Made by a program: the position numbers. A stretch of 64,000 nt of DNA, from NCBI GenBank assembly GCA_038150265.1, contig JAYOTF010000001.1, forward strand, positions 32,665 to 96,664, read 5' to 3'. Shown here piece after piece: positions 45,001 to 48,000 of the stretch (positions are counted from its first letter, which is position 1; every line of letters begins with the position of its first letter). This DNA comes from Deltaproteobacteria bacterium. GTDB lineage: Bacteria; SAR324; NAC60-12.

Positions 45001-48000
45001 CAAAGCGCAGGCCTCCCAAAAAGCGAGCCTCTGGAGGCGCCTCCTTGAGCAGGGCTGCCAGCTGATGCATCACCTCGCGGTAAGGCGTTTCTGCAACGGA
45101 TTGGACGCACCACGCCTCACCAATGCCTGCCAATTTTTCACGCTGAGATCGGTCGGTCCAGTAGGTTCGCTGGGGATGCGGCTGAGCCACCAGCCAGCTG
45201 AGGGGGTCCAGAGCCTGGACCGGTTGTTCCAGACGCACCACGGTCTTCGCCTTCTGGGCGGGATGTCCCACCTTGAGCCAGCGGTCAATTTGGTCCAGAA
45301 GCAGCCCCTGAGCCTCTTCCAGGTTGGGGAGCGCAGAATATGCGGGTGCAGACAGCATGAGGATTCGTTGTTTGATCGTTGGTCTACCAAACAACAGGTT
45401 GGCATTTTTTGCAGAAGAAACAAGGACGGATGTCAGTGCTTTTCCTCCGGAAGACGGGGGTTCGCTCCAGAGGAAATCAGCACTCAGACGACCTCGGAAC
45501 CTCCGGACCCGGCGATCACCAGCTTGCCTTCTTCTTCCAGCTTCTTGACCACTTTGATGATCTTTTGCTGGGCGCCTTCTACGTCTGAAACCTTGACGGG
45601 GCCCAGATTCTCCAGGTCGTCCCGAACCATCTCGGAGGCACGGGATGACATGGAGCTGAAGATCAGCTCACGAACGGCATCACTGGCGGTCTTGAGGGCC
45701 AACACCATGTCTGCCTGGTCCACATCCTTGAGAACCGTTTGCATCTGCTTCGAGTCGATCAACGTGAGATCCTCGAAGGTAAACATCAGCTCACGGATGG
45801 CCTCAGCGAGGTCGGGGTTCGACTCCTCAATCGTTGCCAGGATCCGCGTTTCCGTCGCCTTGTCCACAGCGTTGAGGATTTCTGCAACCGGGGCCACGCC
45901 ACCGACTTTGGTAATGACGGAGCTGGCCGCCTTCATTTCGTCATTGAGGACTTCGTTCAGCTCGGTTACCACCCCAGGCGGAATGCTCTCCAGCGTGGCC
46001 ATCCGGTACATGACATCCGCCTGAAGGTTTTCAGGCAGGGTCCGCAGCACTGAAGACGACTGGTCGACATTGTTGAGGTACGAAAGGATCAGAGCAATGG
46101 TCTGGGGGTGCTCGCTCCGGACGTAGTTGGAGATGGTCACCGGGTCAACGTAACGCAGTGCGTCCAGCCCGCCTTCCTCCTGTCCGGAACGCAGGCTGCC
46201 TTCCAGCTCCTTGGCTTTGTCCGCTCCCAACGCCTTGGTCAGCGCATTCTTGACGAAGTCAGGAGATTTGTCGAGGTAGACCCCTTCTTCCTGCATCACG
46301 GAGTTCCGGTAGAACTCTTCAAGGACGATGTCGATCTCTTCAGGAGAAACATCATTGAAGCGGGTCATGAAGTAACCCACCTGTTGGATCTCCTGCTCGT
46401 CCAGGTTTTTCATGATTTCTGAGGCGCCCTCTTCTCCAAGGGTGAGGAGGAGGATGGCCGCTTTCTTGGGGCCGGTCAGTTTGCCAACGCTCATGGTACT
46501 CCTTATGGTTCCGCGCTGGCAGTGTGACTAGTGGGGGACAGCTACGCGGCTTCCATCAACTTGACAAAGCGTTGGAAGAGGTACTGTGCATCGTGAGGGC
46601 CAGGCGCGGCTTCTGGATGATACTGCACGGAGTATGCCGACCCACTGACCGCTTCAATTCCCTCAACGGTCTGGTCGTTGAGGTTCCGGTGGGTGACCCG
46701 AACACTGGAAGGGAGGGAGTGTTCTTCAACGGAAAACCCGTGGTTGTGGCTGGTGATCTCAATCTTTTCGGTTGCGTAATCCATCACCGGGTGGTTCCCC
46801 CCGTGGTGCCCGCATTCCAACTTGTAGGTCTTGCACCCGAGCGCCAACGACAGGATTTGGTGTCCCAGGCAGATGCCGAAGATCGGCTTTTGGTTCAGCA
46901 ACTCCTTGACCGCCTCCACGGCTTCCGAGACCGCAGCCGGGTCTCCAGGACCGTTGGACAGGAACACGCCATCGGGCTCGAGCGCCAGCACTTCGGCGGC
47001 CGTCGTGTTCCAGGGCACAACCGTGACCGACATGCCCAGGTCTGCCATCAGGCGGAGGATGTTGTGCTTGATGCCAAAGTCGTAGGCCACCACCTTGAAG
47101 CGTGGGGGCGTCCCACTCGACGGCCAGAAGTAGGTCTCTCGGGTCGAAACACGCCGGGCCAGGTTCTGTCCCTCCATCGACGGAAGCGTCAGTGCTTCTT
47201 CCCGGAGGGTGTCCAGGGTTCGGTGAGAGGCAACCGGTGCAATGATGCCGTTGCACTCGCCTCCGGACCGAATGGCGCGGACCAGCGCCCGGGTGTCCAC
47301 TCCTTCCAGAACCGGAATCTTGTTTTCACACAGCCAGTCCTCCAGCGAACTGGAGGCGCGCCAGTTACTGGTCGCCAGGCTCAACTCCTTGACCACGAGC
47401 CCGGCCGCATGCACGGTGGCGGACTCCATGTCTTCCGGGTTGATGCCATAATTCCCAATGTGCGGGTAGGTCATGGTGACAATCTGTCCGGTGTAGGACG
47501 GGTCCGTCAGGATCTCCTGATACCCGGTCAGGGACGTGTTGAAGATCACCTCCCCTTCTGCTTCAAGAGGAGCGCCCCGGAGTTTGCCACGAAAGTACTG
47601 GCCGTTGTTGAGAACGAGCAGGCCGTCGGTCATGTGATTTCAGTCTAGGATGATCAGCTTTTCAGGATCAGGCTTCACCGGCTCCCCTTCTTCAGGCGAG
47701 CAGGACAGAGCCGTTGAGTAAAGAGTAGTGGCCATGCGGTGGGCTTCCGTCCGTTCCACCCGGATGTGGGTTGCCCGCAGGAGGCCCGCCTTGTTTTGCG
47801 TCTTCCGCAGCGCCTGACGGTAGGGGTTGTGTTCCCCCACCAGCGCCACCGCCTTGAGGTCCCCGAGCCGGATGCAATTGGGAGGCAGGATCTCTGCCTG
47901 CATGAGCTGCACCTGCTGTCCCTGCGGAGTCAGTTCCACTGCCAGGGGGCTGCACCCACCCAGCAAGAGGGCGAGGCCGATGATTTTCAGAAACGGTTTC

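Follow-up and report, generated by a model that had tools for sequence, protein, structure and literature searches.

Three fliG paralogues beside a single set of flagellar motor genes in a SAR324 genome and their possible use as alternative rotor subunits

Three intact rotor genes and their partners

Why should a bacterium with genes for only one flagellar MS ring and one export gate encode the rotor protein FliG three times? The question is raised by fliG copy A, which lies in the window analysed here, a stretch of 64,000 nucleotides from a Deltaproteobacteria bacterium of SAR324 (GenBank assembly GCA_038150265.1, contig JAYOTF010000001.1, positions 32,665 to 96,664). Copy A (45484..46494, minus strand) is an ATG-started open reading frame of 336 aa encoding the rotor/switch protein, in which the Pfam domains FliG_N, FliG_M and FliG_C were all found and which aligns from end to end with FliG of Salmonella (8UMD_B) and with a FliF-FliG fusion from Vibrio (8Z4D). 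The gene is placed between carA and a men-type operon, all on the minus strand: carA, for the carbamoyl-phosphate synthase small chain (46542..47633; CPSase_sm_chain and GATase), lies upstream across a gap of 47 bases, and a gene for a chorismate-binding, isochorismate-synthase-like enzyme (43958..45394; Chorismate_bind) begins 89 bases downstream. Further downstream are a TPP-dependent enzyme (42207..43985; TPP_enzyme_N, M_2 and C), which we call MenD-like after its neighbours, and a member of the enoyl-CoA hydratase family (41367..42194; ECH_1), which may be MenB-like.

A search of the whole genome (3.39 Mb in 87 contigs, 97.8% complete, 1.6% contamination) bore out the three full-length FliG, 86-87% identical, that the initial annotation had listed: besides the query itself (C1:78148-79158, 100% identity), copies B (C7:57317-58327) and C (C87:128-1138) share 86/87% protein identity with copy A. 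Each of the three has all three Pfam domains, and all exceed the cut-off of the fliG equivalog TIGR00207 (A 331.9, B 335.3 and C 329.3 bits vs 226.7). At the DNA level the paralogues are ~79% identical, evenly along the whole gene; the three pairs show dN of 0.085-0.095, dS of 1.15-1.34 and dN/dS of 0.063-0.083, in other words, synonymous sites are saturated between the copies (dS>1), and the three orthologue groups have similar branch lengths in the phylogenetic tree. The three copies are old, intact and real paralogues inside one genome.

Part of copy A (45646..45854, minus strand) is covered with 1 mismatch by a 209-nt metatranscriptome contig (run X18, record 5), which is specific to this copy, because the paralogues are only ~79% identical in DNA, although an RNA library can contain DNA. 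Two metatranscriptome runs gave short contigs only over the stretch, so that parts left uncovered carry no information, and a search with simple sigma-54 and sigma-28 consensus patterns, a weak test, found none upstream of 15 fliG copies.

The single MS-ring gene and export gate noted earlier were recovered, since YscJ_FliF and FHIPEP each matched a single gene (FliF and FlhA, respectively). There is one fliL-fliN-fliO-fliP-fliQ cluster, the only FliP/FliQ cluster seen, and one motA-motB-motB' locus, whose two tandem MotB are the only MotB_plug genes of the genome. A second flagellar set (fliF, flhA, fliP, stators) was sought in this genome and none was found; because the genome is 97.8% complete, it is unlikely that such a set was missed. 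Read from the genes alone, the partners for a rotor role of FliG are present, namely one fliF and one motA-motB-motB' locus.

The other switch components are also multiple. Pfam FliM has three matches and FliMN_C nine, of which three are FliM C-termini and six are other genes, in agreement with the six FliN-domain genes reported before. Of the three FliM of the initial annotation, however, two are true FliM by the equivalog TIGR01397 (cut-off 219.6): FliM1 and FliM2 (on contigs C3 and C47; 336.2 and 242.7 bits) have each retained an N-terminus of the CheY-docking type along with the GG.G loop, whereas the gene on C58 reaches 62.5 bits and is devoid of the CheY-docking N-terminus as well as of the GGXG loop, so that it is probably not a switch FliM. 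Nor do all the switch genes lie alone, as had been stated, because one FliN belongs to the fliL-fliN-fliO-fliP-fliQ cluster and the FliM-like gene on C58 adjoins a 695-aa FliN-domain gene. The count of about 17 flagellin genes is matched by 17 Flagellin_N genes over the cut-off and one more below it. In genus g2, 12/12 genomes have one FliG, FliM has three matches in 11/12 genomes and two in the remaining one, and FliMN_C has 7-9 matches (nine genomes scanned). The multiplicity of FliM and FliN is older and family-wide and does not follow the number of FliG, because genus g2 has one FliG yet the same FliM set. On the counts in this genus, the idea of matched FliG/FliM/FliN sets (three 'switch kits') was rejected. 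FliG and FliM paralogues show no one-to-one matching.

Domains of FliG and the positions at which the copies differ

FliG and FliM are a textbook pair of proteins whose structures have been solved. Copy A aligned with FliG of the cryo-EM model of the Salmonella C-ring (8UMD and related structures) over residues 5-331 (E = 1.9e-58), which makes it possible to carry over the layout in five domains, the EHPQ...R motif, the position equivalent to PAA, the Gly-Gly hinge and also the torque helix; the Salmonella ring is, however, built of one FliG sequence, whereas this genome encodes three. Residues about 3-69 (46288..46488, minus strand), with limits set via the alignment, are the equivalent of Salmonella D1; residues 110-199 (45898..46167, minus strand) comprise the FliM-docking domain D3, the linker L3 and the Gly-Gly hinge; and residues 247-335 (45490..45756, minus strand) are the equivalent of D5 with the torque helix. 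The D3 region of copy A contains EHPQ (128-131), R164 and PGV (173-175, opposite Salmonella PAA 169-171), and L3 spans residues 191-199 with the hinge at 198-199. E128-H129-P130-Q131, R164 and G198-G199 are the same residues in aligned FliG of Salmonella, Thermotoga and Vibrio, and the EHPQ...R motif and the hinge are identical in copies A, B and C. We take EHPQ...R to be the contact of the FliG middle domain with FliM, and likewise assume a role for the Gly-Gly hinge. In the torque helix, K268, R285, D292, D293 and K301 (opposite Salmonella K264, R281, D288, D289 and R297) are invariant across the three copies, and these residues are presumably important for the contact with MotA and the stator. 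According to the available part of the source of the domain limits (PMC11087270), D1 of Salmonella FliG binds the C-terminus of FliF, and D3 with L3 is both the domain to which FliM binds and a section of the allosteric route that leads from FliM to the torque helix; excerpts of PMC6290876 and PMC10372836 name the EHPQR motif and the Gly-Gly linker.

A position was regarded as a paralogue-specific fixed difference if it was constant within an orthologue group (two to three species) and different between groups. There are 25 such positions, three in residues 1-106, 12 in residues 107-165, 10 in residues 166-199 and none in residues 200-336. The large majority (22/25) lies at residues 112-195, which belong to the FliM-docking domain and to the linker behind it, while the D1 equivalent has just two (residues 34 and 42) and the stator-facing domain none. 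This distribution differs from that of 52 positions variable within groups, 14 of which are in residues 107-199 (Fisher p = 4e-7), and dN/dS is 0.20-0.23 for residues 166-199 vs 0.025-0.034 for residues 200-336. Among raw pairwise differences the picture is less pronounced, since the share in residues 107-199 is 0.43-0.58 in genus g1, a modest excess over the orthologue background of 0.33-0.38. Elsewhere the share of this middle region is 0.21-0.53 (pairs of genus g10) and 0.17-0.36 (pairs of family f7), and such a clustering of differences is not a general feature.

Conserved loci, duplication and gene conversion in SAR324

Two to four similar full-length FliG were found in 17/72 genomes of the phylum, belonging to nine genera, so that the multi-FliG pattern does recur across SAR324, as first proposed; in the full-text literature searched, which left most subscription journals outside its coverage, no description of multiple fliG in SAR324 was found. 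At locus A, fliG has carA on its upstream side in 17 loci from genera g1, g12 and g2, of which one gave no more than a partial match. Locus B (fliG, trpC, a response regulator, a polyprenyl synthase and the MshE ATPase) is collinear in g1 and its sister genus g12, and the trpC block is without an upstream fliG in 5/5 genomes of g2, g11 and g10. The claim that all three copies have positional orthologues in both congeners stood for A and B, which are syntenic there, but for copy C it was reduced to a match in sequence: the match of copy C to genome G037 is limited to the coding sequence and 27 bases, and the third fliG copy of G036 has a different gene context. An apparent synteny of g1 with loci of g10 or g8 was discarded, because the matches behind it (30-38%) were to paralogues among ABC, oxidoreductase and SDR genes.

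Orthology in sequence is more blurred than the initial annotation implied, since the positional orthologues in g12 are not sequence orthologues. In the tree, the fliG copies of one genus group together, g12 copies A and B are sisters (support 100/99), and a tree that unites every A-locus copy in one clade fails the AU test (p = 0.0049). Identity at third codon positions over the whole gene is 65-68% between A and B of g12 vs 48-53% between g12 and g1. Genera g1 and g12 share loci A and B in collinear order while the sequences at these loci group by lineage, and most likely copies A and B of g12 have been homogenised by gene conversion. Copies B and D of G036 are 91% identical in their 3' part, with an identical run of 74 nt, and the claim of gene conversion is restricted to g12 and to these two copies. 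Recent conversion among the three copies of the genome studied here is unsupported (longest identical DNA runs 20-23 nt, with ~79% identity throughout). Third positions of g1 orthologues from different species are 55-61% identical, as saturated as those of paralogues, and because synonymous sites are saturated, a conversion signal in the three g1 copies is not separable; a loss of orthology signal towards the 3' end in g1 was therefore not ascribed to conversion, as this saturation explains it equally well. The gene conversion in g12 and the near-identical copies of some genomes, such as G034 (94-96% identical), fit selection for sameness or for dosage just as well.

Readings of the multiplicity and comparison with known systems

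We lean towards the reading that copy A is one of three old functional paralogues, all of which serve as rotor subunit of one motor type. The FliF-binding N-terminal and the stator-facing C-terminal domains are near-identical in the three copies, torque-helix charges included, and each FliG copy would accordingly fit into one common MS ring, with one common stator to drive it. A ring made of, or enriched in, one copy might couple differently to FliM1 or FliM2 and might have a different balance of clockwise and counter-clockwise rotation. The copies are probably under different expression regimes, because they lie in different long-conserved housekeeping strings (carA-fliG-men and fliG-trpC-response regulator). 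If the choice of copy alters coupling and bias and the copies are expressed separately, a cell could in this way adjust the switch of its one motor type; to judge from the sequences, the copy differences in the FliM-docking part suggest such a tunable switch. Historically, locus B would have been born in the common ancestor of g1 and g12, gene conversion would later have homogenised A and B in g12, and many further fliG duplications would have taken place elsewhere in the phylum.

More tentatively, it is conceivable that the C-ring is compositionally variable, in that one type of MS ring and stator takes any of two to four FliG isoforms, which would be kept the same where they meet FliF and MotA (in part through gene conversion) and would diverge nowhere but in the module that docks FliM and sets the bias. 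Combined with the two true FliM and the five small FliN, such isoforms would make a combinatorial switch, in which the bias or the signal input is set by whichever housekeeping-embedded copy is expressed. To our knowledge, control of the motor through such a combinatorial switch has been shown in no model organism. The C-ring is commonly viewed as a homo-oligomer of one FliG, and paralogues differing in no domain but the one through which the FliM signal passes would offer a natural experiment on rotational bias and cooperativity, a question now tractable through the cryo-EM structures of 2024. They also present a core motor protein as a small multigene family in a widespread marine and estuarine phylum, a family that has duplicated repeatedly, occupies conserved dispersed loci and has undergone gene conversion. 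For the present the impact is moderate, because the organisms are uncultured and multiple FliG are already known from spirochaetes (three in Leptospira, two in Borrelia).

Redundancy or dosage, with three interchangeable FliG kept for supply or robustness and neutral differences between them, appears improbable. It would fit the repeated duplication of fliG in the phylum, the grouping of copies within genera, the whole-gene homogenisation of A and B in g12 and the similarity of the G034 copies. However, the 25 paralogue-specific residues are the same from species to species and concentrate in a single functional module, dN/dS is ~0.07 in all copies despite dS>1, and one fliG suffices in all 12 g2 genomes. 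The single fliF is likewise at odds with a need for more FliG, as FliG and FliF are described near 1:1 (33:34 in the accessible portion of PMC11087270).

Similarly doubtful is that one copy is the motor FliG and the others are specialised or partly non-rotor proteins (pole- or assembly-specific), as in Borrelia burgdorferi. In favour of this reading, the relative G044 has one diverged fliG (72% identity) in a cluster with cheR and a response regulator and with a PilZ gene nearby. In the genome studied here, however, every FliG domain is retained in all three copies, no difference is seen in the EHPQ...R motif, at the Gly-Gly hinge or in the torque-helix charges, and with branch lengths similar in the three orthologue groups no copy appears freed from rotor constraints. 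Leptospira interrogans has a single type of flagellar system, and the leptospiral FliG paralogues are probably much more diverged than 86%. It resembles our case in having three fliG in one genome (LIC_10023 and LIC_11393, as well as LIC_11900), all detected together in the proteome according to the part of PMC11800159 available, which does not mention domain-restricted divergence or concerted evolution; it differs in belonging to another phylum and in its periplasmic flagella. In B. burgdorferi, which likewise has more than one fliG homologue for its single flagellar system, flagella are not synthesised without fliG2, a fliG1 knock-out still synthesises them and FliG1 is localised asymmetrically (PMC7225975, in excerpt); there are, however, two copies, and the split is shown genetically there while here it would be read from sequence positions. 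Because L. interrogans has three FliG, the SAR324 case is less exceptional than the initial annotation implied.

Flagellar genes are scattered in Campylobacter and Helicobacter too. Their C-rings contain FliY beside FliM and FliN in one motor (available parts of PMC6946799 and PMC8809382) and are thus similar in having extra switch components and scattered genes, but those extras are of the FliN type and FliG is single, whereas FliG is multiplied here as well.

Vibrio and Rhodobacter include cases of two complete flagellar systems. Shewanella putrefaciens, with dual flagellar systems, carries fliG, fliM and fliN each more than once in its genome (excerpt of PMC8203827); such bacteria duplicate the entire apparatus, in contrast to the single FliF, FlhA, FliP/FliQ cluster and stator locus found here, which also argue against a second system. 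That the copies stem from such a system, from mixed strains, mis-binning or assembly error is highly improbable, although the genome is a draft in 87 contigs and copy C is on a 1.5-kb contig without gene context (C87, which breaks because of a ~92-nt repeat at its end that is present at at least 30 places in the genome): the copies' DNA identity of 79% is far under strain level, the contigs that carry A (214 kb) and B (108 kb) match the genome in G+C, and the neighbours of both copies are the same in two other species of the genus. An 8.7-kb DNA contig of run X1, possibly the source of the assembly, spans carA-fliG-men with four differences, and DNA of a second study covers this stretch in pieces. 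The earlier judgement that mixed strains are unlikely is backed by dS>1, by the synteny of A and B in both congeners and by a SAR324 single-cell genome record, which also has three fliG copies.

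Three fliG copies and a single set of partner genes

Copy A of fliG (window 45484-46494, minus strand; contig C1:78148-79158) is an ATG-started open reading frame of 336 codons in which a Pfam search found all three FliG domains. It scores 331.9 bits against the NCBI fliG equivalog model (cut-off 226.7), and the solved FliG chains of Vibrio, Thermotoga and Salmonella align with it from end to end. On the same strand, carA lies 47 bases upstream, and genes for a chorismate-binding enzyme, a TPP enzyme and an enoyl-CoA hydratase follow after 89 bases. Two open reading frames of 120 and 624 amino acids lie between aroB and carA (window 47640-49879, minus strand); profile searches of both gave no Pfam family above cut-off and no NCBIfam family, the sole match being a sub-threshold DUF3244 at residues 531-578 of the longer one.

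Together with copies B (C7:57317-58327) and C (C87:128-1138), the source genome encodes three FliG proteins that are 85.8-86.9% identical and free of gaps (78.8-79.2% in DNA). Every pair shows dS of 1.15-1.34 and dN of 0.085-0.095, the selection on the proteins being expressed in a dN/dS of 0.063-0.083, and the longest identical DNA run is 23 nt. The contigs of copies A and B measure 214 and 108 kb and match the genome in G+C content; in both other species of the genus (g1), these two copies have the same neighbours. Copy C is carried by a contig of 1.5 kb, which breaks off because its last ~92 bases (L002:1459-1549) belong to a dispersed repeat found at 77-97% identity in at least 30 other places in the genome, on many contigs and several times at contig ends; this repeat, perhaps REP- or MITE-like, probably fragments the assembly. 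A sequence orthologue of copy C in the related genome G037 has 99% protein identity, and homology between the two ends 27 bases past the coding sequence. Three FliG types are also present, on three contigs, in the SAR324 single-cell genome record AGAU01; genus g10 has four paralogue groups, and these types match three of them. One 8.7-kb DNA contig of run X1, which may be the assembly's own source, covers the carA-fliG-men stretch with 4 differences, and a second run from another study covers it piecewise. The three copies are real and old.

The genome (3.39 Mb, 87 contigs, completeness 97.8%, contamination 1.6%) contains three full-length FliG, three Pfam matches to FliM, one FliF and one FlhA, as counted in the initial annotation, besides nine FliMN_C matches (six of them outside the FliM genes) and 17 Flagellin_N matches over the cut-off. 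Among five MotA/ExbB-family matches, three belong to ExbB-ExbD pairs, and directly behind another lie two motB paralogues in tandem, each with MotB_plug and OmpA domains and together the only MotB_plug matches of the genome; this is the sole flagellar stator locus (L032:5410-7570; C12:28409-30569). For its MotA, the NCBIfam families MotP and PomA match best, both below their cut-offs, which hints at a sodium-type stator. The switch genes fliG and fliM are missing from their customary operon positions: fliH and fliI come immediately after fliF (C49; L031:1369-5477), and fliN-fliO-fliP-fliQ immediately after fliL (C6; L029:5360-8431). A small FliN paralogue of 99 amino acids (C5:96923-97222, minus strand; L026 ~6924-7223) is located ~310 bases downstream of a string of OmpA-family, ExbB and ExbD genes on the same strand; given the scattered switch genes, this proximity may be due to chance.

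Positions that distinguish the copies

Orthologue groups were compared over three species (three sequences each for A and B, two for C), and 25 positions were fixed within each group but different between groups. Fixed and variable positions are distributed unevenly (Fisher p = 4e-7): residues 1-106 contain 3 fixed between groups and 21 variable within a group, residues 107-165 contain 12 and 7, residues 166-199 contain 10 and 7, and residues 200-336 contain 0 and 17. With domain limits carried over by alignment to Salmonella FliG (offset 3-4 residues), the 22 central fixed positions fall into domain D3 and linker L3; two lie in the FliF-binding domain and none in the stator-facing domain, the charged residues of which are invariant. 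According to a cryo-EM study, D3 is the FliM-binding domain, and the signal from FliM reaches the torque helix through the PAA motif, L3 and D4 (PMC11087270). Of the fixed positions, 127 adjoins the E and 163 the R of the EHPQ...R motif, and positions 191-195 occupy L3 right before the Gly-Gly hinge. The enrichment of differences in the middle region characterises genus g1 and, less distinctly, its sister genus g12: residues 107-199 account for a share of 0.43-0.58 of the pairwise differences between paralogues in g1, 0.40-0.50 in g12, 0.21-0.53 in g10 and 0.17-0.36 in family f7, and for 0.33-0.38 between single-copy orthologues.

We lean, by a little over even chances, towards the three copies being alternative subunits of the rotor in one type of motor; all would fit the same FliF and the same MotA and would differ in the module that couples to FliM and sets the bias, as well as in their regulatory setting. 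The FliG architecture, the selection, the map of differences by domain, the single partner genes and the conserved loci are shown directly; we infer that the copies would be assembled into the motor, confer differing switching behaviour and be differentially expressed. A salt-marsh metatranscriptome library yielded one 209-nt contig inside copy A (one mismatch), and short contigs from neighbouring genes occur in this and in a second library; as libraries of this kind may hold DNA, this is a weak hint of transcription, and of copy A alone. Set beside the group-specific positions in D3 and L3, plain redundancy or dosage seems rather unlikely; we give equally low credence to a split as in Borrelia, with one motor FliG and specialised copies. 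Next to the syntenic neighbours of A and B and the single FliF and FlhA, an artefact or a second flagellar system is hardly credible.

The spirochaetes Leptospira interrogans and Borrelia burgdorferi each possess one type of flagellar system. The former reportedly has three fliG genes (PMC11800159) and the latter two (PMC7225975); that several FliG can serve one flagellar system was therefore already known. As far as the literature searched reaches, which lies mostly outside subscription journals, what is new here is that SAR324 has multiple fliG, that the copies are so similar, that their conserved differences are restricted to D3 and L3, that they occupy dispersed but conserved loci, with putative gene conversion in the sister genus, and that fliG was duplicated recurrently across the phylum.

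Distribution and history of fliG in the phylum

Among 72 genomes of the phylum (completeness at least 80%), 66 have FliG, and 17 genomes from nine genera hold two to four full-length copies (at least 64% identical to the query). A single fliG locus was found in 12 of 12 g2 and 3 of 3 g11 genomes, one of the latter with an extra fragment beside it. In the g2 genome G026, the sole fliG is matched in two parts of a single contig (C2:762299-763295), covering residues 1-230 and 250-336, which may reflect breakage of the gene or an error in the sequence.

The copies group by genus, or even by genome, in a tree of 89 rows. For g1 and g12, gene order gives another picture. Locus A (carA-fliG) occurs in g1, g12 and g2. 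Genera g1 and g12 share a collinear locus B (fliG-trpC-response regulator-polyprenyl synthase-MshE ATPase; in g12 with an inserted EamA transporter gene), and no fliG was found in the 1.1-1.5 kb upstream of the trpC block in five of five genomes of g2, g11 and g10; locus B thus originated once, before g1 and g12 diverged. The A and B copies of g12 are nevertheless sisters (support 100/99), and a clade of all A-locus copies, a group defined by synteny but named after the first tree had been seen, is rejected by the AU test (p = 0.0049). Identity at third codon positions is 65-68% between the two g12 copies, evenly along the gene, vs. 48-53% to g1. Whole-gene conversion between A and B in g12 is the simplest account of these sequences, the alternative being independent insertion at the same site. 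The tree did not resolve the branching order among A, B and C of g1 and the g12 clade. A 74-nt identical run between copies B and D of G036, with a 3' part 91% identical, speaks for a later conversion of local extent.

Extra copies in other genera lie at other loci (e.g., beside DUF1989, glyQS or a che-like cluster), which implies many duplications to new sites; from the tree and locus contexts we informally estimate at least ten duplication events. A diverged FliG of the g10 genome G044 (C1; L079:1731-7137; 72% identical to the query, 79% to the genome's other copy) directly follows cheR, a response regulator and a response regulator/HATPase_c_2 gene, with a PilZ gene 1.8 kb downstream, and may have been recruited to a signalling cluster. 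Genomes of family f2 (G012, G008, G014 and G010; L115-L118) carry, beside ordinary FliG, a second FliG-like gene of only 31-39% identity (open frames of 349-603 amino acids), used here as outgroup only; in G010 and G011 it lies a few kb from the strongest FliM match on the same contig. A single-domain response regulator of 150 amino acids (C7; L022:8286-8738), also present in g12, g2, g10 and g11, follows trpC in every genome examined, two genes after copy B in g1 and g12. Its identity across genera, at 71-97%, exceeds that of its neighbours (53-64%), and the searches gave no evidence for its being a CheY.

FliM and FliN genes

Exactly three FliM matches, usually one strong, one medium and one weak, were found in 23 of 36 genomes scanned of family f1, and in 11 of 12 g2 genomes; FliMN_C has 7-12 matches per genome in 30 of 32 f1 genomes scanned, and 2 and 0 in the two g3 genomes. 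Since g2 has a single FliG, FliG number does not track that of FliM or FliN, and the multiplicity of FliM and FliN is separate from, and older than, that of FliG. The notion of three matched FliG/FliM/FliN switch kits fails for the same reason.

Two of the three FliM proposed in the initial annotation hold up: FliM1 (C3) and FliM2 (C47), which share 40% identity, exceed the fliM equivalog cut-off, and each retains the GG.G loop and an N-terminus of the CheY-docking type. The third, of 318 amino acids, lacks the docking peptide and the GGXG loop and stays below this cut-off. It follows a 695-aa protein with a C-terminal FliN/SpoA domain only (C58; L025:8413-11459), the nearest Atlas clusters of which carry FliMN_C and, in part, SepQ_C. 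Comparable weak matches to FliM recur in families f1, f2 and f7. The pair on C58 may form an SctQ-like module instead of belonging to the switch.
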